Counted from the first letter of the stretch, positions 8,686-64,000 are shown. The stretch: 64,000 nucleotides of DNA from Escherichia coli (GCF_024502345.1 NZ_JALDNN010000001.1), one strand, 5' to 3'. The notes: a model not told the origin generated them from the letters alone. Program-made: numbers and translations.

Positions 8686-8723
8686 CTCGGTTCCTCCGTT
8701 GTCATCTCTGATGAAGATTTTCG

Positions 8724-9149: not shown

Positions 9150-9353
9150 ATCAACCTCAAAAGGGAAATCGGGAAAAAATACATTTATATTGATGATAAA
9201 CCAGCCACAAGCTGTGTCGCTAATTTATTTCAGTTCGGGGAAGGAAAAAAGCGAGGATTTAACACTGTGTCGGATAGCGTAATGGCTTAACCGACACAGC
9301 AATGTATCACACTGTTAGCCCGGCAGGCAAAATATCTGCCAGGCGTACCAGAA

Positions 9354-10655
<1,302 letters not shown>

Positions 10656-16088: not shown

Positions 16089-17928
16089 CTTTCAGGGCTT
16101 TTATCGCCGGATGTAAATCAACAGATTGTAACAGACCACCCGGCGGCGTTTTCACAAGTTGCGGACATAACCGTTCCACGTCCGCCAGCAGGGTTATGGC
16201 CTGTGCCATTGACCACTGCGCATGTTCGCTCATCAGATTTCGTGCAATCCACTGCGCAATATTGCCAGGTTCGAATACGGACTGCTTCGCCAGGTAGCCT
16301 ATCAGTTCAGGAATCAAGATTTGTAAATTTTGTTGGCGTAAGGGTAAAGGCACGGCCCTGATGGTCACATGCTGTGCATCTGACTGGAAATCAATACCCA
16401 ATTCCGCCAGGGCAGACTGCGCTTTTTCTAATGCCGATTTTTCTTCGCCAGAAACTTTTAGCCGCAACGGAATCAGCAGCGGCTGGGCGCAAACGGGCGC
16501 TTCACCCGGCGTCAGTTGTACCTGACGCAGCCAACGTTCTGCCACTGGCAAGGCTAAAAGTGAAATGTTGCCGTCGCGCTCCAGCAACGCACAGTCGGAA
16601 TGGACGATAGTCAGTACCCGACCAAAACTCTGACTGTTCGCCGCAAGTGCAGGTTCCTGCGGTTCCGGCGCTTTTGGTTTTTGCATCGGCGCGGGCGTTT
16701 GCAAAAGCTGGCGATACACTTCACCTTGCTGTTTCTGGTAGCCTGGCTGCGCATTCGGCCAGGGGGCAGCCGGACGACTGCCTGAGGCGGGCGCAGGAGA
16801 GTAGCGCGGAGCTACCGGCTCACGAGCTGCCGGTTCTGCAAAGTGATTGCGCCCCGCCGCCACGCGGTTTTCCGGAATGGGACGCGGTGCAGGTTGGGGT
16901 TCATCGTCCAGCGGTAGCGGCGTTTCCAGTTGCTGTTGTAGCACGCTCAGCACGCCCTGATAGATAAAATCATGCACCAGACGCGACTGATGGAAACGCA
17001 CTTCGTGTTTGGCGGGGTGTACGTTGACGTCCACCTGATGCGGGTCGATCTCCAGATACAACACAAATGCAGGTTGTTGATCGGCCCCCAGTTTGTCTTC
17101 GCAGGCCTGGCGGATCGCGTGATTGATCAGGCGATCGCGCATCATGCGACCGTTCACGTAGCAATACTGAATTTCTGCCAGTGCGGGCGTGGTGTGATTT
17201 GGATCGGCCACCCAGCCGCGCAGGGTGAGATCGCCGTGTTGCCATTCAATCGCCAGCGCTTGTTCGAGAAAAGCGGTGCCACAAATCGCGCCTAAGCGCC
17301 GTTCTTTTTGCCCGCCTTCCGGCACTGCGCGGTACTGACGCACAATTTTACCGTTATGCGACAGGTTGATCGTGACGTCGAAACGCGCCAGCGCAATGCG
17401 GCGGATGATTTCATCGATATGGTTAAATTCGGTTTTCTCGGTGCGCAGGAATCTGCGCCGCGCCGGGGTGTTGTAGAACAGATCCAGCACCTCCAGCGTC
17501 GTTCCCACCGGATGCGCCGCCGGTTTAACCGTCACGTCCATATCGCGTCCTTCGGCATAGGCCTGCCAGGCTTCCTGCTGTTCTGCGGTGCGTGAAGTGA
17601 GCGTCAGGCGGGAAACCGAACTGATACTCGCCAGCGCCTCACCGCGAAAGCCCAGGCTGATAATGGCTTCGAGATCGTCCAGAGAGGCGATTTTACTGGT
17701 GGCATGACGAGCCAGCGCCAGCGCCAGCTCATCTTTTTTGATACCGCAGCCGTTATCACGAATGCGGATAAGTTTCGCCCCACCGCGTTCGATATCAATA
17801 TCGATACGCGTCGCACCTGCATCGAGGCTGTTTTCCACCAGTTCTTTGACTACCGACGCAGGTCGCTCGACCACCTCACCTGCGGCAATCTGGTTCGCCA
17901 GTTGTGGCGGTAAGACCTGAATTGGCAT
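16081..17928 (-). CDS. mutL: DNA mismatch repair protein MutL
   Basis: ORF trimmed to the ATG at 17928 ([38 protein letters not shown]). It has a GHKL ATPase N-terminus. Confidence 0.95.
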
Positions 17929-37059: not shown

Positions 37060-37593
37060 ATGCGCCTGCTCCCTCTCGTTGCCGCAGCGACAGCTGCATT
37101 TCTGGTCGTTGCCTGCAGTTCTCCTACGCCGCCGCGTGGCGTGACCGTAGTGAATAATTTCGACGCTAAACGCTATCTCGGTACCTGGTATGAGATTGCC
37201 CGTTTTGATCACCGCTTTGAACGTGGACTGGAAAAAGTCACCGCAACATACAGCCTGCGTGATGACGGCGGCCTGAATGTCATTAATAAAGGCTATAACC
37301 CTGACAGAGGAATGTGGCAGCAGAGTGAAGGGAAAGCGTACTTTACCGGCGTACCAACTCGCGCTGCGCTGAAAGTGTCATTCTTTGGTCCTTTCTATGG
37401 CGGTTATAACGTCATTGCACTTGATCGGGAATACCGCCATGCGCTGGTTTGCGGCCCGGACCGCGACTACCTGTGGATACTCTCCCGCACGCCAACCATT
37501 TCTGACGAAGTGAAACAGGAGATGCTGGCAGTCGCGACCCGGGAAGGGTTTGATGTCAGTAAGTTTATTTGGGTACAGCAGCCCGGTAGTTAG
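37060..37593 (+). CDS. blc: Outer-membrane lipocalin lipoprotein Blc
   Basis: 177-aa ORF with the lipobox LVVAC and the lipocalin motif [10 protein letters not shown]. Confidence 0.94.
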
Positions 37594-37907
37594 TGAGTGC
37601 TGAGTTTCAGACCAATAATCCCCAATACGATTAACGCCAGACTCGCCAGGCGCATCGGGTTAGCGGACTCACCGAGCAGTACAATGCCGGTGATGGCCGC
37701 GCCGACTGCGCCAATACCCGTCCACACGGCATAAGCCGTCCCTACTGGTAACGATTTCATCGCCCAGGCAAGTAGCGCCATACTGACAATCATCGCCGTC
37801 ACAGTAATAACACTCGGCGTCAAACGACTAAAGCCGTGGGTATATTTCAGGCCAACGGCCCATACCACTTCCAGCAGACCAGCAATAACTAAGATAATCC
37901 AGGACAT
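37590..37907 (-). CDS. sugE: SMR-family guanidinium exporter Gdx (SugE)
   Basis: ORF trimmed to [26 protein letters not shown] (105 aa). It has four TM segments and the conserved membrane Glu. Confidence 0.93.
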
Positions 37908-37925
37908 ATCAGGCTCCGGAGAATT

Positions 37926-37970
37926 GGGGCCGTCCCCGGTGAAAAGACGCGTTTGCAGGTCGTCCTGCAA
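37926..37970 (-). ncRNA. Guanidine-II (mini-ykkC) riboswitch in the sugE leader
   Basis: The minus strand reads UUGCAGG-ACGA-CCUGCAA (37953-37970) and GGGG-ACGG-CCCC (37926-37937). These are two small hairpins with ACGR tetraloops directly upstream of a Gdx gene, the defining mini-ykkC architecture. Confidence 0.75.
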
Positions 37971-38082
37971 AGCTGATGGTTGAACGGATATTTTGCCAGG
38001 TGGCAGGGGAATTTCAACTATTACCTTTGTGACTATCGCAGAGAAAACAAACGGCACGACACAGCTGTCGTACCGTTATTGC

Positions 38083-38229
38083 TTATTGCTGCGCTTTCGT
38101 TGCTGCACCAGAAATCGCGTTACCGCCATCAGAAATGTCTTCACCAACGCCACGCGTGGTGTTGCAGGCAGTTAATACTGTTGAAAGCACCAGAACAGAA
38201 AAGATCGCTGCAATTGTCTTCTTCACCAT
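38083..38229 (-). CDS. ecnB: Entericidin B lipoprotein
   Basis: This gene is below the ORF-track size cutoff. My manual translation is [48 protein letters not shown], with the lipobox LTAC. Confidence 0.85.
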
Positions 38230-38275
38230 AACGTCTTCCTTTTAGGTAATGTTATTTATGTTTGCCTATAGCAAA

Positions 38276-38464
38276 TTAATAATAGACAACATCGCCAAAA
38301 ATGACGGAAATCTGATGATTTTTCGGAAGAGAAGAAAAATAGCTGGCAGCGCGAGAGATGGAGTTGCCGAGATGTTTGATGTCTTCGCCGAAACCGCGAG
38401 CGGTGTTACAGCCCGTGAGCAGCGTGCTGGCAAGCAAAACAAGAACGATAAGGCGTTTCATCAT
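38276..38464 (-). CDS. ecnA: Entericidin A lipoprotein, C-terminally extended allele (62 aa versus 41 aa in K-12 as I recall)
   Basis: The translation is MMKRLIVLVLLASTLLTGCNTARGFGEDIKHLGNSISRAAS followed by YFSSLPKNHQISVIFGDVVYY. TAT occupies the position (38339-38341) where K-12 terminates. Confidence 0.75.
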   Translation of the reverse strand: MMKRLIVLVLLASTLLTGCNTARGFGEDIKHLGNSISRAASYFSSLPKNHQISVIFGDVVYY

Positions 38465-38515
38465 CTCTGACCTGAATAAGTGATGGTGCAGCCTGCAGGC
38501 CGCACCATAACCGCA

Positions 38516-39082
38516 TTACTTCACGCGAGAGACGTATTCACCAGAGCGGGTATCCACTTTGATGACTTCGCCGATTTGTACGAACAGCGGAACTTTAACC
38601 ACAGCGCCAGTAGACAGGGTAGCCGGTTTGCCGCCAGTACCTGCGGTATCACCTTTCAGGCCCGGATCGGTATCAACGATTTCCAGTTCAACGAAGTTCG
38701 GCGGAGTAACGGAGATCGGCTGACCATTCCACAGAGTTACGATACACTCTGCCTGATCCAGCAGCCATTTAGCGTTATCGCCAATTGCTTTTGCATCAGC
38801 AGACAGCTGCTCGAAAGTTTCGTTGTTCATGAAGTGCCAGAACTCACCGTCGTTGTACAGGTAAGTCAGGTTCATATCGACAACATCAGCGCCTTCAGCG
38901 GAATCAGTAGATTTGAAGGTTTTTTCTACGCGAGTACCGGTCAGCAGACGACGCAGTTTAACGCGAGCAAATGCCTGGCCTTTACCCGGTTTTACGAATT
39001 CACTCGCTTCAACCGCGTAAGGTTCGCCGTCTAACATGATTTTAAGACCAGCACGAAAATCGTTGCTATAGTACGTTGCCAT
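38516..39082 (-). CDS. efp: Elongation factor P
   Basis: 188-aa ORF beginning [38 protein letters not shown], which includes the K34 loop. Confidence 0.97.
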
Positions 39083-52038: not shown

Positions 52039-52105
52039 CAGAAACACAGAAAAGAAGCGATTTGCCGCAATCTTAAGCAGTTGAATCGCTTTTACTGAAA
52101 TTAGG

Positions 52106-52134
52106 TTGACGAGATGTGCAGATTACGGTTTAAT
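52106..52134 (+). promoter_or_regulatory. pheU promoter
   Basis: TTGACG (52106-52111), a 17-nt spacer and TTTAAT (52129-52134) are followed by the GC-rich discriminator GCGCCCC immediately before the tRNA. Confidence 0.6.
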
Positions 52135-52144
52135 GCGCCCCGTT

Positions 52145-52220
52145 GCCCGGATAGCTCAGTCGGTAGAGCAGGGGATTGAAAATCCCCGTGTCCTTGGTTC
52201 GATTCCGAGTCCGGGCACCA
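52145..52220 (+). tRNA. pheU: tRNA-Phe (GAA)
   Basis: GCCCGGATAGCTCAGTCGGTAGAGCAGGGGATTGAAAATCCCCGTGTCCTTGGTTCGATTCCGAGTCCGGGCACCA is a 76-nt tRNA with anticodon GAA and an encoded CCA. It lies next to yjdC, as pheU does in K-12. Confidence 0.97.
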
Positions 52221-52231
52221 ATATTCATAAG

Positions 52232-52262
52232 GCCTCGCTGCAAAGCGGGGCTTTTTCCTTTT
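52232..52262 (+). terminator. tRNA-Phe terminator hairpin
   Basis: The stem GCCTCGC/GCGGGGC (one G-U pair) has a TGCAAA loop and is followed by TTTTTCCTTTT. Confidence 0.65.
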
Positions 52263-52390
52263 CTGGCTACGGTAGATTTCTGGTCGTTGCGGCACGTTAT
52301 TTGTTTGCTGGATTTCTCGCCATTTTCGCAGTTGTTCGTTACTTTTAGACACCTCAACATCCTTTGATGTACCTTTTCCTAACCTCACAG

Positions 52391-52417
52391 CTACGGTCTT
52401 TCTACGGTCCTCTACGA
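52391..52417 (+). repeat. Phased direct repeats CTACGGTC / CTACGGTC / CTACGA (10-11 bp register)
   Basis: Copies start at 52391, 52402 and 52412. A fourth copy, CTACGGTA, lies at 52267-52274. Confidence 0.6.
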
Positions 52418-52456
52418 TTCCTTTCTCTCAGAGCATTCATAATAAAGTAGAAAATA

Positions 52457-52560
52457 CGGGGAAAACGGGGGAATTATCATTTCGCCCTAATCCGCAGGTC
52501 TTAACGTGATTTTGTCGCGGGGAATAAGGTGGGGAAATCCCCAATAGCAAGCGGGGAAAT
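52457..52560 (+). repeat. Cluster of five direct CGGGGAA(A/T)-type repeats
   Basis: The copies are CGGGGAAAA at 52457, CGGGGGAATT at 52466, CGGGGAATA at 52518, TGGGGAAAT at 52530 (followed by CCCC) and CGGGGAAAT at 52552. An inverted copy AATCCCCCG lies at 52659-52667. Confidence 0.6.
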
Positions 52561-53071
52561 CTGGCAGCATACCCCCTCCACCATTCACATGGGGATCTTC
52601 ACCAGTCCGTCCACCTACAACAAGCTCTTCTTGCCCTTTCACTTCTTACCGTTTTCAGAATCCCCCGTTCTCCACGCCATCATAAAATGATTTATCCGTA
52701 AGCTTAACGTAATGGACTGTTGAACCTGAGTGTCCGCTGTGAGCGAAAAGCGGAACTTCTCACATAGGTAATGAAGCGTTTCCTAACGTCAGGGTGTACT
52801 AATCAACGAAGAGCAGGTCAGAGGACTCGAACCGCTTTCCTCTTCCATCTACGTAGAATTCCAAGAATTTATGTGCTTTCCAGTTACAATTTAGCCATGC
52901 TAAGTTAGAAAAAGCATTGAGTACCTTAGGATTGTATCGATGATACTCTAAGGATCTTGGAGGCTTGTGAGGCGTAAGGTTCAAAGCCAATAGTTTATTA
53001 ATAGTCACACAAGTGGCTCTATTTTTCGCCTACAAACCTATATTTTTCATACAAATAAAAGAAGTGTATTT

Positions 53072-54490
53072 ATGAATACTCAGCAAATTAAGGTTGGCAG
53101 TGTACCTGAAATTATTGAGCTATTACCAAACTCTAGCGAGCAGGCTGATTCTCATCCTTTCATCCTATCGGCAAACAGTGCATGGGGTGAACAGGGAGCA
53201 GAAATATCAATAGAGAGATTACGCCAAAATATCGAGCCTTGGCTAACAGCTCTCTTCCAATCCGAACATTTAAATTTATTGATAGGTGCGGGTTTAAGCA
53301 CGTCTATTCAAATATCGGCTACAGATTCACCTCCAGCTGGAATGGGTTGGATCAGCGATCTAGCCGTATGTAAAAGTGAAATAGATGCATTTTCTACTCT
53401 GGCTGCCAAAGCTGCAGGTCGCGATAACGGAAATATAGAAGATCAAATTAGAGCTATTAATGAACTTATTAAAGGGCTTGAAATTCTGACAGTGTTGAAT
53501 ACCCCTCAACCTGAAAATCCTCCAGCTCCTCATGCTGCTTATAGAAATCTAAAAACGGATTTAGAAATACTCAAGGGAGAGCTTTCTCGCTGCCTAGGTG
53601 AGTTTTCAAGATCTGTGAGTGCCGGAGAATACTTGATTAAAACTGCTGAACCAAAGCGTAAAGAGGAAACTTTCAACTATCTAGTTAGTTTCTTGATGAG
53701 CTTTGCAAGTAGGACCGCTACTCGCGATAGGTTGCATATTTTTACAACAAACTATGATCGCATTATTGAAGTAGGTGCTGAGCTTGCTGGTTTGAGACTT
53801 ATAGATCGCTTTGTAGGAAGTATCGCTCCAGTGTTTCGATCTTCAAGATTGGAGGTTGATTATCACTATAATCCTCCAGGAATTCGTGGCGAACCAAGAT
53901 ATTTAGAAGGCGTAGCGCGTTTTACTAAGCTTCATGGATCCCTTGATTGGCATGAACAAAATAGCGCGATTAGGCGCTTTGGTTTACCTTTTGGAGCACG
54001 TTCTGTTGAACCTTTTTTAGAAGCTGAAGGCCATCAAAGCAACAGCTTTGAACAACTTATGATTTACCCTAACTCAGTAAAAGATAGAGAAACTGCCGAG
54101 TACCCTTATGTTGAGCTATTTCGAGATCTAGCCGCAGCAACTAGCCGCCCAAATAGCACATTAGTCACCTATGGCTATAGCTTTGGTGATGAGCATATCA
54201 ACAGGGTAATTGAAGACATGCTTACAGTGCCTTCGACTCATGTAGTCATAATTGCCTTCGGAGATCCGCTTGGAAGAATCATAAATTTCATTAATAAGAG
54301 TGGAAGAAAAGCACAGATCACCCTATTAATGGGAGACCATTTAGGAGACCTCAAGACTTTAGTTGATAACTATTTACCTAAACCAGCTATTGATAAAGCA
54401 TCAATAAAAATGACTGAATTGCTTAAGCAAAGAGGATTTATCCAGCCCAAAGAATTAGGTAATTCAACTGGCTCCGAGGTATCACAATGA
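53072..54490 (+). CDS. SIR2-like (SIR2_2-type) NADase-family protein, first gene of a SIR2-HerA pair
   Basis: 472-aa ORF with the motifs LLIGAGLS (GAGxS Rossmann loop), FTTNYDRIIE, FTKLHGSLDW and YGYSFGDEHIN. These are characteristic of prokaryotic defence-associated SIR2 domains. Its stop overlaps the next start (ATGA at 54487-54490). Confidence 0.8.
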   Translation: MNTQQIKVGSVPEIIELLPNSSEQADSHPFILSANSAWGEQGAEISIERLRQNIEPWLTALFQSEHLNLLIGAGLSTSIQISATDSPPAGMGWISDLAVCKSEIDAFSTLAAKAAGRDNGNIEDQIRAINELIKGLEILTVLNTPQPENPPAPHAAYRNLKTDLEILKGELSRCLGEFSRSVSAGEYLIKTAEPKRKEETFNYLVSFLMSFASRTATRDRLHIFTTNYDRIIEVGAELAGLRLIDRFVGSIAPVFRSSRLEVDYHYNPPGIRGEPRYLEGVARFTKLHGSLDWHEQNSAIRRFGLPFGARSVEPFLEAEGHQSNSFEQLMIYPNSVKDRETAEYPYVELFRDLAAATSRPNSTLVTYGYSFGDEHINRVIEDMLTVPSTHVVIIAFGDPLGRIINFINKSGRKAQITLLMGDHLGDLKTLVDNYLPKPAIDKASIKMTELLKQRGFIQPKELGNSTGSEVSQ

Positions 54491-56520
54491 GTTACTTACC
54501 AATAGAAAGATTAGAACAATTAAGAATTGGATCTGTTGGATTTGTATCACCTAATGAAATTAGAGTTTCTTTAGAGATTGACTCCCCTGATTCAGTGTCA
54601 CTTCAAGGCGGTTCCCCCCGCAATTTTCCTCGAATAAATAGTTATGTACTGATCAGTAGCGATGATGGATTTCTCGTCGGACAGGTTGAATGGATTGCCG
54701 TAGAACACTCTCCATACCCCAAAAGAAGAGGCTTACAAGATTTTGGCTTGATAGATCTTCCTTTTCCACTTAAAAAGCTCAGTATCAATCCCGTTGGTAC
54801 TTTGAGAGTCGATAGAAAAAACGAAGATTACAAGTTCACAAGAGGAACAGATGCTTTTCCCTCGGTTGGTGACTCCGTGCTCCTGCCTACTGACCGGCAA
54901 TTAAAATCAATAATAGAATCAGGTGACAATAGAAGAGTAAAAATAGGGGACAGCCCCCTAGCTAACAATGCGGAAATAAAAGTGGACCCTGATAGGCTTT
55001 TTGGACGACATTTAGCTGTTTTGGGCAATACAGGTAGTGGTAAATCATGCTCGGTTGCGGGGTTAATTCAATGGTCTTTAGATGCTGTTTTACAACAGGG
55101 ACAGATTCCAAATGCTCGGTTCATAATACTTGATCCAAATGGAGAATACAGTAGGGCATTCGGCCCAGAATCAAAATACAAGGGTAAGCTATTACGTGTA
55201 GAAGCTAACACTGGTGCTGAAGAGATAGATCTTAAAGTTCCGTCATGGTTATGGAATAGCTCTGAGTGGGGTGCTTTCACTCAAGCGAGTTCAAAAGTTC
55301 AACTTCCTTTACTACGCCGAGCTTTGAGGGCGATGAGAAATGATGTTTTATCAGAAGATGATGTGACAATCCAAGCGAAACACTTCTGCGGTATCCTACT
55401 CGTATCCATACGACAATTATCAAGCCAAGGCCAGATATATGTGAATGGCGGCCATGCCAAAGGTTTCGTTGATAGTTTAACGTCTTGGAATAATAGCCTG
55501 TCCACATTAAACGACAAAATCGATAACAAACCTTTCGATAATCTAATAAACACGATGAATGTGTATCTTTCCTCTCGTATAGGAATAAAATGGCCTGAAA
55601 AACCTGAAGTTTCAGATACTGATCAGTTGATTAATGAATTAAAAAATGCATATGAAACGCTTGGAGGTGATGAACAAGGACTTCTTCCAAAAAGTGAAGA
55701 TTCGCCTATTCGTTTTAAAGGGGATGATTTTGTCGCATACCTAGAAGCTCTAGCTCAAGAGACAGGCACAGAGCAATTCGTTGAATTCCTTTTGACTCGT
55801 ATTCGAACAATGCTAGGTGACACCCGTATAAGTGCAGTAACAAATGATTCGGAACAGCCTATCAGTTTAACTAATTGGTTAGACACTTTTCTCGGTAGAG
55901 ATGGACAAGGTTCCATAACTGTTATCGATTTATCGCTAGTCCCTAATGAAATAATACATTTGGTAACTGCTGTAATTTCCAGAGTAACTTTTGAAGCATT
56001 ACAACGTTATCGAAGACTTAAGGGGAAACCACTACCAACAGTTATGGTTGCAGAAGAAGCGCATACATTTATTAAACGCTACAAAGAAGATAGTGAGGGT
56101 CAGTCAGTCTCTGACGTATGCTGCAAAGTGTTTGAAAAGATCGCACGTGAAGGCAGGAAATTTGGGTTAGGTCTTGTAGTTTCTTCCCAACGACCCTCAG
56201 AGCTATCTCCGACTGTGTTATCTCAATGTAATACTTTTTTGTTGCACAGGATTAGTAATGATAGAGATCAAGAGCAAGTCCATAGACTTGTTCCCGATAA
56301 CATGAGGGGGTTGTTGAGGGAGTTGCCATCGCTACCATCTCGGCATGCCATTCTACTAGGATGGGCTTCTGAACTTCCGGTTTTAGTTAGAATGAAAGAG
56401 CTTACTGAAAAACAAAGACCACAATCTGACGATCCCGATTTTTGGGATGTGTGGTCTAACACTACAGAAGAGCCTCGCGAAGTTAATTGGCAACCAATAG
56501 CTGATGATTGGCAAAGTTAA
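54487..56520 (+). CDS. HerA/FtsK-like (DUF87-type) ATPase, second gene of a SIR2-HerA pair
   Basis: 677-aa ORF. It has an N-terminal barrel-like segment (RIGSVGFVSPNEIRVSLE), Walker A LAVLGNTGSGKS and Walker B TVMVAEEAH. It also carries VVSSQRPSELSPTVLSQCNTFLLHRISNDRDQ, typical of HerA-clade ATPases. Confidence 0.85.
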   Translation: MSYLPIERLEQLRIGSVGFVSPNEIRVSLEIDSPDSVSLQGGSPRNFPRINSYVLISSDDGFLVGQVEWIAVEHSPYPKRRGLQDFGLIDLPFPLKKLSINPVGTLRVDRKNEDYKFTRGTDAFPSVGDSVLLPTDRQLKSIIESGDNRRVKIGDSPLANNAEIKVDPDRLFGRHLAVLGNTGSGKSCSVAGLIQWSLDAVLQQGQIPNARFIILDPNGEYSRAFGPESKYKGKLLRVEANTGAEEIDLKVPSWLWNSSEWGAFTQASSKVQLPLLRRALRAMRNDVLSEDDVTIQAKHFCGILLVSIRQLSSQGQIYVNGGHAKGFVDSLTSWNNSLSTLNDKIDNKPFDNLINTMNVYLSSRIGIKWPEKPEVSDTDQLINELKNAYETLGGDEQGLLPKSEDSPIRFKGDDFVAYLEALAQETGTEQFVEFLLTRIRTMLGDTRISAVTNDSEQPISLTNWLDTFLGRDGQGSITVIDLSLVPNEIIHLVTAVISRVTFEALQRYRRLKGKPLPTVMVAEEAHTFIKRYKEDSEGQSVSDVCCKVFEKIAREGRKFGLGLVVSSQRPSELSPTVLSQCNTFLLHRISNDRDQEQVHRLVPDNMRGLLRELPSLPSRHAILLGWASELPVLVRMKELTEKQRPQSDDPDFWDVWSNTTEEPREVNWQPIADDWQS

Positions 56521-56626
56521 TTAACTTAACTAATTTTTAGTAGTGTTATAAGTAGTGGCTTATATCTGACATGACAGTTTAGGTTAGTAGTTTCAATCTA
56601 ACAGTAAGTGTCCACGGTGACGTTTT

Positions 56627-56665
56627 CATACTCAAATCTCCTGAAATGTGGGAGATTTGAGTATG
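56627..56665. other. Perfect 15-bp-stem hairpin in the convergent intergenic region
   Basis: CATACTCAAATCTCC - TGAAATGTG - GGAGATTTGAGTATG. There is no flanking U-run on either strand. Confidence 0.6.
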
Positions 56666-56941
56666 GTTGTCCCTTATGAGCGAGGAGCGGAAGTTCTGCT
56701 TTAAGTGTATCAAACCCTCCAGCAAAGATGTTCTTGAATGTAATGCCATAATTTCCCTAACATTCCAGCACAAATCAATTAACTCTCAGTCCATAGTGTA
56801 TTTTACTTAAATTAAAATCAAATACTCTAGGAATTAAAATAACAAGATCACTTGCGATTATGCTATTTTAAATTAATATTTTTGTTTTTACTGGGGAACC
56901 TTCAAAACACGGAGCCAGATTTCTTCGTAGCTACCCTGTTG

Positions 56942-57766
56942 CTAGGGTTTCAAGTATTCCCCTAAAGGAAAGAAATTTTTTGACAACTTTTGGGATTCAG
57001 CAATTTTAACCAAATAAATATAGAATCCCAACAGAGCACTGTTCTCGCTTTCCCCCCTCGAATAGTGAACATGCCCAGGCACCTTCCGGATGAGGAAACC
57101 ATTATTTTTTACCAAATAATACCCTCTATCTAAAATTGTAATTACATCAGGCATATCATCTAAATCGATATTATTTCCAGTCATGTAATTAAACAGCGAA
57201 TCTCGTAAGGTACTTTCCTCTGGACCTTGGAAGGCTAGTAGTAAGAATGGTGTTTTTCTCAAGGTTGCACACATCCCTGAGATTTCCTCTACTAATTGCA
57301 CTGTATTTTGGGGAATATTTTCTTTCATAAAATAACCATCGTCAATACCGATTGGATTGATTCTTACCAAACCTTTTGACCTAACGCAAGCATCTAAGGT
57401 TGTCTTAAGGTTTGAAGCTCCTTCGGTCATTGAGCCAGTGTTTAATGAAGATTTACATTCAATTAACGCTAAAGCTGAATCGACAGGGACCATACACTGA
57501 TCTTTATCATAACTAAGTTTTAAAGAATGTTTCGAGTATATGATAATATCCATCTGACTTGAGAGATTATCCTTAGAGTCAAAAACCTGTCCTGATGTAA
57601 TATCTAAATTACTAGGGAGATTTGCTTTTAAAAATTCCCTTATTACAATTTCTCTAGCACTTCCTTTGCTACTCCCGTTCGTCGTTATGGATGACAAATT
57701 AAATGCTGAAACCAAAGATGCCGTATGGTTTTTTAAGTGTTTCTGGATTAATTTCATAAAGCTCAT
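56942..57766 (-). CDS. Hypothetical protein with an N-terminal PD-(D/E)xK-like nuclease motif (reminiscent of DUF6602, from memory)
   Basis: 274-aa ORF in AT-rich DNA. It contains SKGSAREIVIREFLKANLP...SGQVFDSKDNLSSQMDIIIY...ALALIECKSSL, giving E39/E44, D73 and E103-x-K105 in the order expected for restriction-endonuclease-fold enzymes. The C-terminal half has no motif I recognise. Confidence 0.6.
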   Translation of the reverse strand: MSFMKLIQKHLKNHTASLVSAFNLSSITTNGSSKGSAREIVIREFLKANLPSNLDITSGQVFDSKDNLSSQMDIIIYSKHSLKLSYDKDQCMVPVDSALALIECKSSLNTGSMTEGASNLKTTLDACVRSKGLVRINPIGIDDGYFMKENIPQNTVQLVEEISGMCATLRKTPFLLLAFQGPEESTLRDSLFNYMTGNNIDLDDMPDVITILDRGYYLVKNNGFLIRKVPGHVHYSRGESENSALLGFYIYLVKIAESQKLSKNFFPLGEYLKP

Positions 57767-58194
57767 TCCATTTTAATTTATCTACATCGCTTAAAGGCAA
57801 ATGATGCCACCGGCTACCAATTAAAAATTATCTCAACCTGAGAGATTTTTCCAGACTCCAAACGAAAATAAAAAACTACTCGTCACGTCCCTCCTGGCAC
57901 ATAGCCGACACCAAAACCAGCAACATATGGACAACGGTCCCTGCCCTGATGGCAGGTAATTGTATCAGACTTAAACACATATTATTTCTGTGAACTCCCC
58001 CCAACGGCAGTCCTTTCCTCTGAAGACCAGAACCAGACCGTAAAGCCTGCTCTTTCTGCATTTCCCGTATTAATTCATACCATGTGGCACCAGCATTCCC
58101 TTCGCCACACCAGAAAATCAATTCCCCAATAAAAAAGTGCCGTGCCGGGGATGGGTCAACCCTGACGTTCTTTACACCAGTCACAGGAGGTTAT

Positions 58195-59379
58195 ATGTCC
58201 ACCCCCAAACGCTTCCGTTTTACTAATCAGCTCATTAAATCCCTGCCCCCTAACACATCCGATGCACGCAGTACCGATGCCGAATACAGCGACACCGAGA
58301 TTTCCGGCCTCAAGTGTCTGGTCAGCAGAAGAGAAGGTCGTAAAAAGTTTTTGCTACGCTACCTTTATCATGGACGAAAACGCGCCATCGCCATTGGTCA
58401 CTGGCCTGAAGTGGACGTCAATCTTGCTCGTCAGATTGCCATAGAACACAAACGTTCCCTTGCCACCGGCACTGACCCTAAGCAGGAGCGTGAAAACAAG
58501 AGAATGGAGCTGACGTTCGATGAACTCTTTAATCAGCATTATCTGCCATGGGCAAAATCCGCTAAACGCAGTTGGGGAAAGGATGTTCAGCGCTACCGCG
58601 ATCATATCCGTCCCGCCATTGGTCAGAGGCTGCTGAGCGATATCACACCAGCGAGCATTCTGCGCCTTCAGCAGACGTTAAGTACTTCCCTGTCAGCAGC
58701 TACCTGTAACCGTGTCATCGTACTCATTAAAGCCGTCTTTACATGGGCCGGAAGGCAAAGCATGACCTCTGTCCATCCGGCAAGGGTGGTACAGCTTCTC
58801 AGGGAGAACAACGCCCGACAGCGCTATTTCACCGAGGACGAAATTCGTCGTATTTTTCTCTCCGCCGATAACGATACCAGCCCCGTCGCGGCCCGCTATG
58901 TCAAACTGTTGTTACTGACCGGCCTTCGTCGTGATGAGCTGCGTCTGGCTAAGTGGGAGCATGTTGACCCGGTTAAACGCACCCTGTGGCTCCCGGAAAC
59001 CAAGAATGGCTATGGGCGGATTGTTCACCTTAACTCACTGGCGATGGACGTAATCAGAACGCTGCCAACGCAGCGGGGAAATCCGTGGTTGTTTATCGGT
59101 AAAAAACAAGGAATGCCGCTGAATAACCCCGTTAAAGCCTTTCAGCGTATCGTTCGTCGGGCGGGAATTTTCGACCAGGAAGTGTGTATTCATACCTGCC
59201 GCCATTCGGTTGCCGCCCTCATCGTGTCCTACGGCGGAACACTGTATGACGTTCAGGCTCAACTGGGGCACCGCAGCAGTCAGTCTTCACAACGTTATGC
59301 GCATCTTCACCCTCAGCGCTTACAAAACACCAGTCAGTTACTGGCGGAAAGGATAACGGCTCAGCTACCGTCCTTGTGA
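58195..59379 (+). CDS. Tyrosine-type site-specific integrase (int1)
   Basis: ORF 58084..59379 trimmed to the ATG at 58195, preceded by AGGAGG (MSTPKRFRFTNQLIKSLPPN..., 394 aa). It has an N-terminal arm-binding-like segment (IAIGHWPEVDVNLARQIA). The catalytic signature is TGLRRDEL, HTCRHS, LGHRS and RYAH. Confidence 0.88.
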   Translation: MSTPKRFRFTNQLIKSLPPNTSDARSTDAEYSDTEISGLKCLVSRREGRKKFLLRYLYHGRKRAIAIGHWPEVDVNLARQIAIEHKRSLATGTDPKQERENKRMELTFDELFNQHYLPWAKSAKRSWGKDVQRYRDHIRPAIGQRLLSDITPASILRLQQTLSTSLSAATCNRVIVLIKAVFTWAGRQSMTSVHPARVVQLLRENNARQRYFTEDEIRRIFLSADNDTSPVAARYVKLLLLTGLRRDELRLAKWEHVDPVKRTLWLPETKNGYGRIVHLNSLAMDVIRTLPTQRGNPWLFIGKKQGMPLNNPVKAFQRIVRRAGIFDQEVCIHTCRHSVAALIVSYGGTLYDVQAQLGHRSSQSSQRYAHLHPQRLQNTSQLLAERITAQLPSL

Positions 59380-59388
59380 TAACAGAAA

Positions 59389-59419
59389 AGCAGAGGCAAG
59401 TGCCCCTGCTTTTTTTTTA
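59389..59419. terminator. Hairpin terminator shared by int1 (+) and the 118-aa gene (-)
   Basis: The stem AGCAGAGG/CCCCTGCT (one mismatch) is followed by nine T on the plus strand, with a weaker UUUCUGU on the minus strand. Confidence 0.65.
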
Positions 59420-59434
59420 CTGTTCAGCCATCAG

Positions 59435-59791
59435 TCAGAACGGGATGGCCCCATATTCTTCATCCGGCACCCGGTTATCATCAAATCTGTTATAGAGTTC
59501 ACGAGCACACTCGCGCGCGTCTTTAATAGACATACGAGGGAACCTGCCGAGGGGTTCATAATAGCAGGCCCCTTCAAGCGTATAACGAGCCAGGAATTTA
59601 ATCTCACCGTTGGCAATGACGGCCCGGAGCGCAGGCTCGCTGCCATCGAAGATTTCACGAGAAATGCCGTGATAAAGGCACTCCGCCAGTGTGTTAACCA
59701 GAGCGTAATCATTGAATGAGGTTTTTTCTTCATTTTCGCTGCTGATAGCGTGAGGAAAACCGTCATAGTACTGGTCTGATTCAAAAATCAT
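59435..59791 (-). CDS. Small protein carrying a stand-alone integrase N-terminal (DUF4102-like arm-binding) domain
   Basis: 118-aa ORF with an AAGGTG Shine-Dalgarno 5-10 nt upstream of the ATG. GEIKFLARYTLEGACYYEPLGRFPRMSIKDARECARELYNRF aligns by eye with int2 GRIKFIVRKSIRGKNIYVAVGGYPEISIKDAREHAFKIIQEL. Confidence 0.7.
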   Translation of the reverse strand: MIFESDQYYDGFPHAISSENEEKTSFNDYALVNTLAECLYHGISREIFDGSEPALRAVIANGEIKFLARYTLEGACYYEPLGRFPRMSIKDARECARELYNRFDDNRVPDEEYGAIPF

Positions 59792-59840
59792 ACATCACCT
59801 TCTATTGGTTGTTATTCAGTCAAAATGGTTTTATTCAGGG

Positions 59841-61769
59841 TTAAAATTCGGTCATCACATTGCATTTCAGAAACGCTTTTTTGACCTGGTAGTAAGACTG
59901 CGCCATCGTCTTCAGCGCTCTTTTTTTATAGTGTCCGGCACTTTCGCCAAGCAGATAACCGGAACGCTCTAACGGTCTGGCCACATCAACGGTCTTAAGT
60001 CCCTTTTCAGAACAGAGCTTTTCAAACACCGATTCATAAATCAGGAAGTCGCCGGTTTTGTAATGGACGAATCCCCACATATCTCCCGGGCATCGGGCAT
60101 GTTCGTCACGCAGGGTGATAAAGTGCCTGCTGCTTTTTGTCACCAGCGTCAGCTGAAGCTCCTCCAGCATGTTACGCACCGGGTTATACTGATTCTGGTT
60201 ATCATCCAGCCAGCGTCGTGCAGCGGACATAACGGATTCAGCCACCGCATCGCTTTCGAAAGGTAAAAGGCCATATTTCAGCGCCTTCTCTCCTGCCAGC
60301 CATACCAGCGCAAATCTTTTCAGTCCGCGCCGCTGAACGCGGGTAATATCACGCCCCTCATCCCTCAGGGCCTCTTCCAGTGCGTTACAGCAATCATCTG
60401 TCTGTTCCTGGAGCCAGGATGAAAACTCTGCGTAGGTGCGAAGACCGCCAGCCGTATTTTTCCCGGATAACAGTTTGCCGATAAATGCAGGCCCGGCATG
60501 ACCATAAGCCTCTGCCAGCCCCGTCTTCAGTGCATCTGCACGGGCACGTGTTTCTGATACCGGTTCATCCGGTTTTTGAGCATCCTCAGGCAACAGTTCC
60601 ATACTGATGGCCCTGTGCTCCTGCCCTCCCTGTAACACGGCTTTCTGTTCAGCCAGCTTTTCGGAGATTGACATCTCACCGGTGGAGAGAATAAACATGC
60701 GCCATTTAAACGGCTCATCTGCCGTCAGGCCACGGTTCAGGCGCTCTTTTGCCGTACCTGACGTAATGTTGTAAAGCAGTGAGGAAAGTTGCTTATGATT
60801 ACTCGCACCCAGTTCATCGACGCAGGCGACCAGACCGGAATAGTCAGCGAGAAGGCGCTCCATCGCGTTAGGCGTGGTATTCCAGCGAATAATATTTACA
60901 TTCCCCCCACTACCCGGCTCGCTGCCATCACCATGGACCGATGCAGCCAGCATCAGGAGAAGCGTTTTACCGGTGGTGGATACGCCGTGAAAATGAAACA
61001 TGCCCACATCCATACCGGCAGGAACCAGAAGCATCGAAGCAAAGGACGCACTCAGTGCAAAGGTCTGCGCCCAGCCATGGACATTTTCCCGGATGAGGTT
61101 AATCCACTCCTCCAGGGCCCCACCTTTGTGCAGTCCGGGACGCACGCGGAATCCCGGCAGTAGATAATCAAACCCGGTCAGAGAGGTCACAACGGGCTCA
61201 TGACCATGTAAAAAGGCCATATCCTCCGAAACGAATCCCATCGCATCTGCCATCAGATAGACAGGCAGCGGTAAACTCCGGCAGCGCTGAAGAAAACGGT
61301 CAAAAAGGGCAAACTGCTGTGGAGAGGAGCCAACACAAAATCCACGATCTGCCAGTTTGCCTACTACCTGAGCACCGCTCTGAACAATATCCTCAAAGCG
61401 TACCAGGGCCTTAACATACTTACCCAGCCCGTTACCGGTCATCAGGCTGATCCCAAGACCGGACTCCTTATCTTTTCCACAAAACAGGGCGACAGGCACA
61501 ACTGGCGTGGTGCAAACCTGCACAGGTTTCTGTCCACCGATGTAGAAAAGGCCATTAGCCGTATTCACATAATGCCGTGGCAGCCCATCACCAATACCGA
61601 GTGAAGCGATATCATCTTCACCGACCTCAGTGTTTTCAGCACGCCTGATAATTGCTTCCGACATTTTGTTGAAATTTTTATCGCGGTCAGCAAAAGCGCG
61701 AATACGCTTAATCCCGGAAACCTTAGGAACATTAGTTGTCACTTTTTTATTCATGTGTATTACCATCAA
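59841..61769 (-). CDS. DUF927-like P-loop helicase / replication initiator of a mobile element (start codon uncertain)
   Basis: 642-aa ORF. Its N-terminal region (NGLFYIGGQKPVQVCTTPVVPVALFCGKDKESGLGISL...) resembles DUF927 as I recall it. Walker A is HGVSTTGKT and Walker B is LVACVDELG. The alternative start MNKKVTT lies 5 codons in. Confidence 0.7.
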   Translation of the reverse strand: MMVIHMNKKVTTNVPKVSGIKRIRAFADRDKNFNKMSEAIIRRAENTEVGEDDIASLGIGDGLPRHYVNTANGLFYIGGQKPVQVCTTPVVPVALFCGKDKESGLGISLMTGNGLGKYVKALVRFEDIVQSGAQVVGKLADRGFCVGSSPQQFALFDRFLQRCRSLPLPVYLMADAMGFVSEDMAFLHGHEPVVTSLTGFDYLLPGFRVRPGLHKGGALEEWINLIRENVHGWAQTFALSASFASMLLVPAGMDVGMFHFHGVSTTGKTLLLMLAASVHGDGSEPGSGGNVNIIRWNTTPNAMERLLADYSGLVACVDELGASNHKQLSSLLYNITSGTAKERLNRGLTADEPFKWRMFILSTGEMSISEKLAEQKAVLQGGQEHRAISMELLPEDAQKPDEPVSETRARADALKTGLAEAYGHAGPAFIGKLLSGKNTAGGLRTYAEFSSWLQEQTDDCCNALEEALRDEGRDITRVQRRGLKRFALVWLAGEKALKYGLLPFESDAVAESVMSAARRWLDDNQNQYNPVRNMLEELQLTLVTKSSRHFITLRDEHARCPGDMWGFVHYKTGDFLIYESVFEKLCSEKGLKTVDVARPLERSGYLLGESAGHYKKRALKTMAQSYYQVKKAFLKCNVMTEF

Positions 61770-61838
61770 ATTACGCCACCGTCAGAAAACGGGTGCATCA
61801 GAACCATAGTTAAAAACCATACCGTTGAGTGAAGGTTG

Positions 61839-63251
61839 TTACCCCATCGCCCGGTTAACGACTTCGTGGTAACGCGCCGGGGAAGCGTGCAAGTAAAGCT
61901 CCGTTACTTTGATAGTGCTGTGACCCAATAAGTCTTTGACGGTGTGAATGTCGGCCCCGCTCTCAATGAGCTTTGTCGCAAAGGTATGACGCATCTCATG
62001 GATGGTGAACGGTGGAATACCCGCAGCCTCACAAAGTCGTTTTTGCAGGCGACGCGGCTCAGCAACCGGATTGTCGGTTCCCTTGCCCGGAAATACCCAG
62101 CCTTCATCACCCAGATGCTGACGCTGTTCTGTCAGAAGAACGAAAGCCTTATCACATACCGGTACACGGCGTAGTTTGCCGTTTTTGGTATGGCGAAGGG
62201 TGATAACCTTGCGGCTCCAGTCCACATCTTCAAGACGAAGGTGACGGGTTTCCCCCAGACGCAGCCCCGTCAGGGCAAGGAACATGAGAAGAGCAAGGGC
62301 TTCATGATCGGGTTTACCATTACGCCAGCGCTCACAGACGTCCATCCAGCGCTGAAGCTGGGAGTCATCCATGGCACGGCGATCTGACGTCACTTCAGGC
62401 AGCGCTTTGATATAAAGCGCCGGAGAGCGGCTGATGTATCCCATGCGTATAGCCCAGGTAAACACCGCTTTAATGAGCGCCAGATGGCGGTTGCGGGTGG
62501 CAGGCTTGAGATCGAGATTATGCAGATAGCTCAGAATATCTGCCTCCGTCATACCTGCCAGCTTTTTGTCACCGAGAAGAGGGCGCAGGTATTTACGGAT
62601 CTTAGAAAGGTCGGTGTTAGCTGAACGCTTAACGCCCGTGCTGAGTACGCTTTTCTCATACTCATCCACAAGCTCATTAAACGTCATTTTACTGTGAGTA
62701 AGAAAACGCTCACCGTAAGCCTCAACGGCGGTCTTGAGCTCCTGAATTATTTTAAAGGCATGCTCCCTTGCATCTTTAATTGAAATTTCCGGGTAGCCTC
62801 CTACGGCAACGTAGATATTCTTTCCGCGAATACTTTTGCGGACAATAAATTTAATGCGACCTGATGGATAGAATATTGCCTTAAGTCCGGTTAACTTCTT
62901 ATCGCTGGTCTCGATTGTTTGTGCAGCTTGTACTGCACGGATTTTATATTCATCAAAAAGGGCTTTAGTAAAAACACCTCCAGTATTTTTAGGTGCAACC
63001 CCTGGATATTCTACAACATCAGATACTCCAGAGTCGGAATACCCCTGAGCTTCCACATCTACATTGAAGGAATTTTTATGAGCAGCTGTGATGCTCTTTT
63101 CATCCAGCACTTGCGTTATTTTATTTAAAGGGTAATTAACTTTCATAATATGTACATGGTCCTCTGAAAATTCAGATGATAATGAGTAATTTAATATGTC
63201 GGCCAACAATGGGATAAGCTTATTTATTCGTGGCATCACTTTCAAGCCCAT
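61839..63251 (-). CDS. Tyrosine-type site-specific integrase (int2), with a long N-terminal extension
   Basis: 470-aa ORF. It has an arm-binding segment (VAVGGYPEISIKDAREHA) and a catalytic signature of TGLRLGETRHL, HEMRHTFAT, LLGHSTIKVTELYLH. The start codon is uncertain because no clear Shine-Dalgarno is visible. Confidence 0.85.
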   Translation of the reverse strand: MGLKVMPRINKLIPLLADILNYSLSSEFSEDHVHIMKVNYPLNKITQVLDEKSITAAHKNSFNVDVEAQGYSDSGVSDVVEYPGVAPKNTGGVFTKALFDEYKIRAVQAAQTIETSDKKLTGLKAIFYPSGRIKFIVRKSIRGKNIYVAVGGYPEISIKDAREHAFKIIQELKTAVEAYGERFLTHSKMTFNELVDEYEKSVLSTGVKRSANTDLSKIRKYLRPLLGDKKLAGMTEADILSYLHNLDLKPATRNRHLALIKAVFTWAIRMGYISRSPALYIKALPEVTSDRRAMDDSQLQRWMDVCERWRNGKPDHEALALLMFLALTGLRLGETRHLRLEDVDWSRKVITLRHTKNGKLRRVPVCDKAFVLLTEQRQHLGDEGWVFPGKGTDNPVAEPRRLQKRLCEAAGIPPFTIHEMRHTFATKLIESGADIHTVKDLLGHSTIKVTELYLHASPARYHEVVNRAMG

Positions 63252-63317
63252 GAAAAATCAGCTCTTACATGCCCATTGACATTTAATACTCAAGTCAGAA
63301 AGACCATGATGATTCAT

Positions 63318-63331
63318 CAGGAGTACTCCTG
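63318..63331. promoter_or_regulatory. Perfect 14-bp palindrome upstream of int2
   Basis: CAGGAGTACTCCTG lies 67-80 bp upstream of the annotated int2 start. It is a candidate operator. Confidence 0.3.
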
Positions 63332-63423
63332 CTCAGGGAAAAGGGAAAATAGCGTTAAACCCTATAAAAAAATTGTGTTCCGGATGCATCGCCCAAAGTA
63401 AGTCAACTTTTGAGGCCCTGAAG

Positions 63424-64000
63424 GGCTTTGTTGAATAAATCAGATTTCGGGTAAGTCTCCCCCGTAGCGGGTTGTGTTTTCAGGCAATACGCACGCTTTC
63501 AGGCATACCTGCTTTCGTCATTTTGTTCAGCGCTCGTACCAGGGCCATAGCCTCCGCAACCTGACCATCGTAGTCACGCAGCGTCAGTGAACCCCCGAAC
63601 AGCTGTTTTACCCGGTACATCGCCGTTTCCGCTATCGAGCGACGGTTGTAATCTGTTGTCCATTTCCACCGCGCATTACGCTGATTAGCCACTGCACGGT
63701 TACGGTCTGCATATTCACCGGGCCAGTAACCCGCACCTTTTCGGGGAGGGATAAGCGCGCTGATTTTCTTACGCCGCAGTTCATCGTGACAGAGCCGGGT
63801 GTCGTAAGCGCCGTCTGCCGATGCTGCCCTGATTTTTCTGTGAGTCTGCCGGATAAGACCCGGGAAGGCTTCTGAGTCCGTCACATTGTTCAGCGACAGG
63901 TCAGCGCAGATGATTTCATGTGTTTTACTGTCAACGGCGAGATGCAGCTTACGCCAGATACGGCGGCGTTCCTGGCCATGCTTTTTGACTTTCCACTCGC
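63424..64000. mobile_element. IS903-like element (IS5 family), truncated by the window edge
   Basis: The terminal inverted repeat GGCTTTGTTGAATAAATC starts at 63424, followed by the transposase C-terminus on the minus strand. Confidence 0.85.
63480..64000 (-). CDS. IS903-family DDE transposase (C-terminal part; N-terminus outside the window)
   Basis: The frame stays open to the window edge. It translates ...RRRIWRKLHLAVDSKTHEIICADLSLNNVTDSEAFPGLIRQTHRKIRAASADGAYDTRLCHDELRRKKISALIPPRKGAGYW...AGMPESVRIA, matching IS903/IS102 transposase as I recall it. Confidence 0.85.
   Translation of the reverse strand, partial: EWKVKKHGQERRRIWRKLHLAVDSKTHEIICADLSLNNVTDSEAFPGLIRQTHRKIRAASADGAYDTRLCHDELRRKKISALIPPRKGAGYWPGEYADRNRAVANQRNARWKWTTDYNRRSIAETAMYRVKQLFGGSLTLRDYDGQVAEAMALVRALNKMTKAGMPESVRIA

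Follow-up and report, generated by a model that had tools for sequence, protein, structure and literature searches.

The DNA analyzed here, referred to below as the window, is a 64,000-nt stretch of an Escherichia coli chromosome around pheU, a tRNA-Phe gene with three tRNA-Gly genes 29 kb upstream of it (ARAGORN). A genomic island enters the window at its left attachment site, attL, and leaves it past the right edge. Our subject is a trio of co-oriented minus-strand open reading frames (ORFs) within that island, which encode an integrase (Int2, 470 aa), a DUF927 protein (642 aa), and a small protein with a predicted arm-type DNA-binding domain (118 aa), and are separated by spacers of 69 bp (int2/DUF927 gene) and 49 bp (DUF927 gene/arm gene). 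The original prediction had placed and sized these genes and their spacers correctly, and took the trio to be a free-standing minimal element. The features needed for the argument are the following.

52145-52220, plus strand: tRNA-Phe gene pheU (ARAGORN)
52172-52220, plus strand: attL, the left direct repeat, formed by the 3' 49 nt of tRNA-Phe (a perfect 49-bp repeat around the complete islands L001 and L002)
52271-52286, plus strand: candidate integrase arm-type site GGTAGATTTCTGGTCG (motif GGTAGNTNTCTGGTNG, present in all islands a single time some 50 bp inside attL)
58195-59379, plus strand: int1, an arm-type tyrosine integrase gene, 394 aa (PF00589, 4e-23; Arm-DNA-bind_3, 3e-13)
59387-59418, between convergent genes: bidirectional intrinsic terminator AAAAGCAGAGGCAAGTGCCCCTGCTTTTTTTTT, a hairpin bordered by an A-run and a T-run
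59435-59791, minus strand: gene for a 118-aa protein predicted to be a stand-alone arm-type DNA binder, whose acidic, disordered tail has IPF as its last residues
59447-61844, minus strand: exchangeable cassette of arm gene, DUF927 gene, and both spacers (breakpoints from the window against L022 and others)
59841-61769, minus strand: gene for a DUF927/Cch-type MCM-like initiator-helicase, 637-642 aa (Pfam, NCBIfam, PHROG)
61839-63251, minus strand: int2, a second arm-type tyrosine integrase gene and the first gene of the operon, 470 aa (PF00589, 5.5e-32)

The DUF927 domain of the 642-aa protein (PF06048, residues 78-346) scores 118.2 bits against a Pfam gathering score of 22.6 (7.3e-34), and the Walker A (GVSTTGKT) and Walker B (VDELG) motifs that had been read from its sequence were borne out by an alignment of homologues, with G267, K268, D318, and E319 invariant across 21 of them. 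The 642-aa reading starts at TTG, and its RefSeq relatives begin five codons later at ATG, which gives 637 aa. When the PDB was searched by sequence, two solved proteins only were matched: Cch from SCCmec, the staphylococcal cassette chromosome mec (5dgk, 1e-14), and the protein of the Staphylococcus aureus pathogenicity island (SaPI) SaPIbov1 (8tch, 7e-12), described as an initiation of replication protein with helicase activity. An AlphaFold2 (AF2) model built from the 21 homologues (pLDDT 86, pTM 0.75) was aligned by Foldseek with Cch at 3e-23 (TM 0.76, 593 columns) and with SaPIbov1 Rep at 1e-19 (TM 0.70), and the next matches were MCM2-7 subunits. The modeled three-tier fold, with N-terminal, MCM-like AAA+, and C-terminal domains, agrees over its whole length with the solved members. 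The C-terminal Cch helix-turn-helix (HTH) domain (HTH_56, PF18662) reached 21.6 bits, under its cut-off of 26.2, and the fold alignment extends through the C-terminus. The protein is a relative within the Cch family and not a Cch1 orthologue, as the NCBIfam equivalog NF047345 gave 79.3 bits against a cut-off of 700. The sequence identity to SCCmec Cch is about 17%.

The question for which the original prediction had proposed HHpred is thus answered by sequence and fold searches, which place the protein in the DUF927/Cch/SaPI-Rep class of self-loading, MCM-like replication helicases and not with D5_N or SF3. By its modeled fold, the 642-aa protein is a Cch/SaPI-Rep-type initiator-helicase, for which 3'-5' helicase activity and action at an origin are predicted. 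SaPI Reps are initiators and 3'-5' helicases whose C-terminal winged helix reads iterons located just downstream of rep (PMC9371898), while Cch, the SCCmec counterpart, is co-encoded with a small DNA-binding protein beside two recombinases (PMC7581432). No primase domain was found in the 642-aa protein and no primase gene in the island.

The trio does not stand alone. At no fewer than 16 related loci it is embedded, at the same place, in an island of about 21 kb whose gene order is constant in E. coli, Enterobacter, Kluyvera, Buttiauxella, Pseudescherichia, Citrobacter, and Pseudocitrobacter, and the family is present in Mixta as well. The left half of the island runs from attL through about 260 bp of conserved arm DNA and a variable cargo slot to int1 on the plus strand, followed by the arm gene, the DUF927 gene, and int2 on the minus strand. 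The right half comprises nine conserved small genes, a DUF262 gene (PADLOC HEC-05), a type I restriction-modification (R-M) system, and the right attachment site, attR; the nine small genes include those for a DUF2787 protein, an LRAT-family protein, a 79-aa DeoR-type HTH protein, a DUF3944 protein, and an HTH-WYL regulator. Two complete islands free of insertion sequences (IS), L001 and L002, were compared with the window; the IS-free islands measure 20,982 bp at pheV (strain MB15) and 21,359 bp at pheU (strain 2018-01-1CC), and both are flanked by perfect 49-bp direct repeats that span tRNA-Phe from the anticodon stem to CCA. Repeats of the tRNA 3' end on both sides, an internal integrase, occupation of both pheV and pheU, and presence in several genera identify the whole as a tRNA island. 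The intact element and its att sites, which the original prediction had proposed to seek in related genomes, were found, but at the limits of the island of about 21 kb; att-like repeats flanking the trio itself are not present, and the trio is not a self-contained unit.

The trio was searched for in 5,426 complete E. coli genomes, a plasmid set, 50,697 phage records, and IMG/VR. Megablast recovered the block in 120-133 of the E. coli genomes, depending on the query, and always on the chromosome, whereas the plasmid collection, the phage collection, and IMG/VR gave no match. The family occurs in at least seven enterobacterial genera, and its backbone proteins are 90%-100% identical to those of E. 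coli; a likeness this close between genera, and the use of pheU as well as pheV for insertion, point to horizontal movement in the recent past, as judged from sequence. The window is homologous to the IS-free islands at 52097-52482 and 57934-63422. Its own attR falls off the window, so that attL alone is visible, and its closest copy in the E. coli collection is a pheU island (L024) that has the same SIR2-HerA cargo and a complete backbone. Since L024 retains the full backbone, the rest of the window's island probably lies beyond an IS element, off the window. The backbone is about 21 kb; cargo and the IS bring the copy in the window to a larger size.

Every island has one copy of a 16-nt motif, GGTAGNTNTCTGGTNG, some 50 bp inside attL, and both complete islands have one more about 130 bp inside attR in the same orientation, against an expected count of 0.00. 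Its positions are 17299-17314 and 38040-38055 in L001, and 17298-17313 and 38424-38439 in L002, and it occurs nowhere else in any 40-kb locus. This placement resembles that of arm-type integrase sites in P and P' arms, which makes the motif a candidate for such a site. Candidates at both island ends suggest that the unit of recombination would be the whole island and not the trio. Three CTACGGT-like repeats were also seen, by eye only, at about 52390-52420, to the right of the candidate arm site.

These observations bear directly on the minimal-element reading, in which an independent, satellite-like element of integrase and helicase would sit beside int1 and would have been truncated by IS903. 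The trio is indeed compact, co-oriented, and ended by a terminator, the hairpin shared with int1 was found as predicted, and a distant relative (L008) has the order int, HTH_17, DUF927. It is also correct that no capsid, conjugation, or mobilization genes are recognizable, even in complete copies of the island. However, the position of the trio is fixed within one 21-kb backbone, att repeats and candidate arm-type sites occur only at the ends of the whole island, and int1 is no separate neighbor but belongs to this island, where no gene is more conserved. Moreover, the exchange breakpoints described below leave int2 outside the swapped unit, and the IS is intergenic, with homologous sequence running on past its position in IS-free relatives. 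We therefore consider a free-standing minimal element very improbable. The original prediction had itself named constant embedding in larger elements as ordinary cargo as a point that would count against it; the trio is always embedded, but as core machinery and not as cargo.

In L008, a metagenome contig, the integrase, HTH_17 (AlpA/Xis-like, 61 aa), and DUF927 genes occupy 6583-10096, the DUF927 protein is 37% identical to that of the window, and a second integrase gene and a DUF2787 gene lie upstream. This arrangement suggests that the combination of two integrases with a DUF927 helicase is old and that the small partner gene is interchangeable.

Comparison of the window with L022, an island of Pseudocitrobacter, revealed which part of the trio is exchanged. 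The Int1 proteins are 99% identical and the Int2 proteins 98.5%, but the DUF927 proteins are only 47% and the arm proteins 38% identical. Nucleotide homology is lost at 59447, four codons before the arm-gene stop, and returns at 61845, just past the int2 stop; the flanks are 96%-98.5% identical and the inside is 65% identical. At least five highly divergent allele types of this cassette are found between conserved flanks, and among islands the DUF927 protein drops to 43%-48% identity and the arm protein to 34%-48%, or its gene is missing. The identities of the DUF927 and arm proteins co-vary and that of Int2 does not, which, together with the breakpoints, indicates that the DUF927 and arm genes are inherited and swapped as one unit. 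The segment that evolves as a unit is thus 59447-61844, with int2 excluded, and not the trio as first supposed. All four genes, int1, int2, the DUF927 gene, and the arm gene, are under purifying selection. By analogy, the swapping of the cassette could be an allelic replacement like that of the initiator/origin specificity modules of SaPIs; alternatively, conflict with phages or rival elements could drive it. The breakpoint at 59447 coincides with the last codons of the arm protein (59435-59480 encodes its C-terminus). In one further locus (L013, E. coli CUVET18-789, 6898-8061), the DUF927 gene is deleted and the arm gene abuts a gene for a 387-aa integrase, indicating that the module is able to decay by internal deletion.

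The small protein of the cassette matches Arm-DNA-bind_3 (DUF4102/PF13356) at 22.8 bits (1e-4), under the cut-off of 27, and BLASTP aligns it with the arm domain of Int2 at 40% identity over 52 aa (5e-9), closer than with that of Int1. Its AF2 model is poor (pLDDT 51) and shows three strands followed by a helix; the top three Foldseek matches of this model (3rmp, 3jtz, and 3ju0) are all P4-type arm domains, with weak values of 5e-3 to 1e-2. By sequence, no significant match was found in the PDB, and no match to SSB (single-stranded DNA-binding protein) or to an OB-fold in Pfam, NCBIfam, or PDB. The frame is open in alleles that are 38% identical, with pN (0.43) below pS (0.80), and dN/dS is 0.24-0.45 among closer alleles, so the arm gene is real and not a chance ORF. 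The family is tiny, with 20 matches among 1.84 billion representative proteins. A 117-aa overlapping ORF (59431-59784, minus strand) that ends in MGPSRSD was rejected as a separate gene; it is an out-of-frame reading, and the same reading forms the C-terminus of frameshifted arm-gene copies in databases (P0063, P0068, P0073, and P0074).

The tail of the protein is variable in length, acidic, Tyr-rich, and predicted to be disordered, and it carries I-P-F at the very C-terminus. This tip is kept in intact homologues down to 38% identity, with the exceptions of three that end in IQF, one subfamily with IDF, and one subfamily without the motif. Among 492 ORFs of at least 80 aa from the window and six 40-kb loci, only the arm gene encodes an IPF terminus, for which the chance is about 1e-4 per protein. 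SSB has the same C-terminal layout, in which a folded DNA-binding domain is followed by an acidic, disordered linker with IPF at its end, although the likeness is one of resemblance only; DnaG, chi, PriA, and other proteins dock on the tip of SSB, DDDIPF (PMC5872125, PMC3632105). Because the tip is invariant while the protein and the helicase diverge to 38%-47%, its target is likely to be conserved as well, either a host protein or Int1. One tentative idea, which we would sooner doubt than accept, is that the 118-aa protein may be a replication adaptor that joins a sequence-specific arm-type domain for double-stranded DNA to a mimic of the SSB tail and, once bound to the island, recruits DnaG primase, the chi subunit of Pol III, and PriA to a helicase that has no primase. 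If true, the adaptor would explain how a primase-less island replicates in Gram-negative hosts. In cassettes without the arm gene, an IPF-like tip on the C-terminus of the DUF927 protein was looked for and no consistent pattern was seen. The idea of competition between the arm protein and Int2 at arm sites was weakened by L022, where Int2 is 98.5% identical and the arm protein 38%.

It is also conceivable that the DUF927-arm cassette serves chiefly to interfere with phages, plasmids, or rival islands and is not what replicates the island, in which case its hypervariability would reflect an arms race. Extreme divergence between near-identical flanks, inside a defense island, is in keeping with this, and an SSB-tail decoy could titrate the SSB partners of host or phage. 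In Thermus, the primase-polymerase encoded beside a putative helicase in ICETh2 serves as a barrier against incoming DNA instead of replicating the element (PMC7693054), and a DUF927 gene has proved dispensable for the mobilization of a related class of islands (PMC7449626). Set against this, the three trio proteins match none of the 5,027 defense models in PADLOC, the entire fold of the helicase is that of proven replication initiators, and allelic diversity of Rep and ori is normal in SaPIs too (PMC9371898). We judge a conflict role for the cassette to be quite unlikely as its main function.

The two integrases differ in conservation. Int1 is 84%-99% identical across genera, with a dN/dS of 0.05-0.09, and its gene is the most conserved of the family; from its position and conservation, Int1 is probably the tRNA-Phe att-site integrase and the likelier att recombinase of the two. 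Int2 matches PF00589 at 111 bits, and its catalytic R...HxxR...H...Y residues can be read as LTGLR, HEMRHTF, LLGH, and ELY. Its N-terminus contains a SAM-like domain and an Arm-DNA-bind_3 match of 26.1 bits, just below the cut-off of 27, which aligns with the clear arm domain of Int1. The two proteins are 31% identical, and the dN/dS of int2 is 0.08-0.33. The 5' third of int2 (62632-63251), with a GC of about 0.39, is AT-rich, and it forms a mosaic from one island to another, with breakpoints at 62632-62972. RefSeq relatives of Int2 have starts that give 394-470 aa, and a promoter-like site (63118-63146) lies within the longest ORF; the 470-aa start of int2 is doubtful.

Taken together, we propose that the trio is the recombination and replication core of a tRNA-Phe-specific, defense-carrying family of integrative islands in Enterobacteriaceae, a reading to which we assign a probability of about 70%. 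We infer excision, replication, and transfer as follows. An arm-type integrase would recombine the 49-bp att repeats, aided by the candidate GGTAG...TGGT arm-type sites that each att arm has; of the two integrases, Int1 would more likely perform this step, and Int2 may be its partner or an inducible recombinase. The int2-DUF927-arm operon would next be expressed, and the helicase would load itself at an allele-specific origin, then melt and unwind the excised circle as SaPI Rep does. Host primase and polymerase would replicate the circle, as the island has no primase of its own. For the same reason, the small protein may assist by using its SSB-like tail to tether replication factors of the host, or may instead serve as a directionality factor at the arm sites. 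Transfer between cells would rely on an external helper, either a phage or a conjugative element.

Several results weigh against this proposal. No iterons or origin-like repeats were found in 59300-63423 by 7-/8-mer clustering or TRF. Two metagenome pattern scans recovered no attP junctions, either excised or in tandem, although their power is low for rare circles, and a megablast of a synthetic 369-bp attP against the 5,426 E. coli genomes, also of low power, returned the attL and attR halves only. About three of seven cassette types (L004, L006, and L021) lack the arm gene, which is therefore not essential to the helicase and would be an accessory partner. The DUF927 gene of MGIVchHai6 is dispensable for both excision and mobilization (PMC7449626), which leaves a replication role for the Gram-negative DUF927 class unproven. 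An attempt to identify the att integrase by likeness to a classical tRNA-Phe P4 integrase failed, as Int1 and Int2 are equally distant from it (24% and 23%); neither is near the classical P4 type. Finally, in many of the E. coli copies an IS element has inserted or int2 is truncated, and the copy in the window is itself IS-interrupted and may be immobile.

Two known lifestyles each amount to a different reading of the island. The first is that of an integrative mobilizable element of the mobilizable genomic island (MGI) type, in which a conjugative plasmid or an integrative and conjugative element (ICE) would induce the operon and transfer the circle, with the arm protein in place of Xis or another recombination directionality factor (RDF). 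MGIVchHai6, MGIVmi1, and MGIVflInd1 are gammaproteobacterial, have a DUF927 operon with an adjoining directionality gene (HTH/RDF or xis), and often carry type I R-M (PMC4958241, PMC7449626); the backbone described here has type I R-M as well, and its arm gene occupies the xis position of MGIs. However, MGIs use trmE or yicC as the insertion site and combine a single integrase with a MobI homologue and AcaCD/SetCD boxes. No such feature was found in this island, which has two integrases and an arm-domain protein in place of Xis. In a complete island, AcaCD/SetCD-type boxes are at chance level (one intragenic match with three mismatches against 2.05 expected). MobI, relaxase, and oriT were not recognized in the backbone, with the limit that the libraries hold no MobI or oriT model, and the island was never found on plasmids; its tRNA-Phe site and arm-type integrases are also unlike those of MGIs. 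We consider an MGI lifestyle unlikely.

The second is that of a phage satellite resembling phage-inducible chromosomal islands (PICIs) or P4, which a helper phage would induce, the DUF927 helicase would replicate, and helper capsids would package. SaPIbov1 Rep is the nearest solved relative besides Cch, and satellites typically have an integrase, a Rep-type helicase, defense cargo, and a tRNA site; several backbone proteins also match PHROGs of unknown function. The island further shares with the pri-rep-ori region of SaPIs and PICIs the Rep fold (8tch, 1e-19), allele-diverse replication modules, an integrase, and site specificity, whereas it has no primase, no iteron array downstream of the helicase gene, no AlpA/Stl-type regulators, and no packaging-interference genes. 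Genes for AlpA, primase, capsid remodeling, and small terminase, as well as cos/pac sites, were not found in complete islands, no relatives occur in the phage records or IMG/VR, and at 21 kb or more with variable cargo the island has no defined packaging size. A satellite lifestyle is in our estimation improbable.

The tRNA-Phe-integrated defense island favored here is most readily compared with the pattern-1 operon of SCCmec (LP1413 and Cch, beside CcrA/CcrB), whose Cch is the best structural match of the helicase (5dgk, 3e-23). Both have a helicase and a small DNA-binding protein in one operon, two recombinases, site-specific insertion at the 3' end of a conserved gene, variable cargo, and no transfer genes (PMC7581432). 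They differ in that SCCmec uses serine recombinases and the rlmH target, whereas the island uses arm-type tyrosine integrases and tRNA-Phe in a Gram-negative host; moreover, the small protein of SCCmec is a winged-helix binder of single-stranded DNA, whereas that of the island is of predicted arm type with an SSB-like tail and is encoded after the helicase. The classical P4-integrase islands GI-pheV and GI-pheU share the insertion sites and an att repeat derived from the tRNA 3' end (PMC11537424), but their integrases are 23%-24% identical to those described here, their repeat is a 19-bp imperfect one against the perfect 49-bp repeat of this family, and their cargo is for virulence and not for defense; a replication helicase and a second integrase are found in this family. 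A Gamma-mobile-trio (GMT) island was considered and rejected, as GmtY (NF040693) scored 19 bits where the cut-off is 340. The literature that could be searched covers pheV virulence islands (PMC11537424) and DUF927 genes in MGIs, but contains no description of this family. From its gene content, it appears to be a tRNA-integrated defense island that looks competent for replication, and the SSB-like tail would be its most unusual feature.

The remaining features of the window concern the cargo and the right edge of the visible island.

52483-57933, genes on both strands: variable slot for cargo, reaching from the attL arm towards int1 (no homology to L001 or L002)
53072-54490, plus strand: SIR2 (PADLOC, 2.7e-154)
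54487-56520, plus strand: HerA (PADLOC, 2e-252)
56942-57766, minus strand: DUF6602 PD-DExK/NucC-like nuclease, divergent from SIR2-HerA
63424-64000, minus strand: partial IS903-group (IS5 family) element that exits the window (terminal inverted repeat and transposase fragment)

In other islands, the slot contains a restriction enzyme accompanied by ADH and LysR, an ABC-three-component system, a SIR2 variant, or a single hypothetical gene. By these gene assignments, the island family carries anti-phage defense systems.

The inverted repeat of the IS903-group element, GGCTTTGTTGAATAAATCAG, starts at 63424, which is intergenic and 172 bp upstream of the int2 ATG. Homology to the IS-free islands ends at 63422, and the relatives have 320 bp more of intergenic DNA before the first backbone gene. 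Because the sequence of these relatives runs on past the IS site as intergenic DNA, no gene of the module is truncated, and the supposed cut by IS903 on the upstream side is not one. The IS may nevertheless split the operon from upstream regulatory DNA and alter its control in this copy. In the divergent int2/hypA intergenic region of L001 (24187-24444), we noted a 21-nt inverted repeat (24213-24233/24298-24318) and a 37-nt direct repeat, which are possible operator sites. No conserved operator was found upstream of int2, where the region is mosaic, of at least three unrelated types among islands, with only the hypA-proximal 50 bp conserved.

Two further loci are unusual. In E. coli Ec-U18 (H88), the attL-type sequence at about 2789517-2789727 is annotated as "peptidase" and not as tRNA-Phe, which may be an annotation quirk or an unusual island context. 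In E. coli G3/10 (L005, pheU), a classical P4-type integrase gene lies at 37470-38732, past the last backbone genes of the island; this suggests that a second island has accreted in tandem at the same tRNA-Phe, with the attR of L005 unmapped.

If the proposed reading holds, the trio block should be annotated together with int1 and the adjoining defense genes as one island. Replication of excised islands by a Cch-type helicase in E. coli, the swapping of a hypervariable gene pair, and recruitment through an SSB-like tail are raised here for test. By way of two tRNA-Phe sites, the family would carry defense systems from one enterobacterial genus to another, including SIR2-HerA, ABC-three-component systems, restriction enzymes, HEC-05, and type I R-M. 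It would represent a Gram-negative counterpart to SCCmec, in that it has a Cch-type helicase and a small DNA-binding protein along with two recombinases and cargo slots, and lacks genes for transfer.

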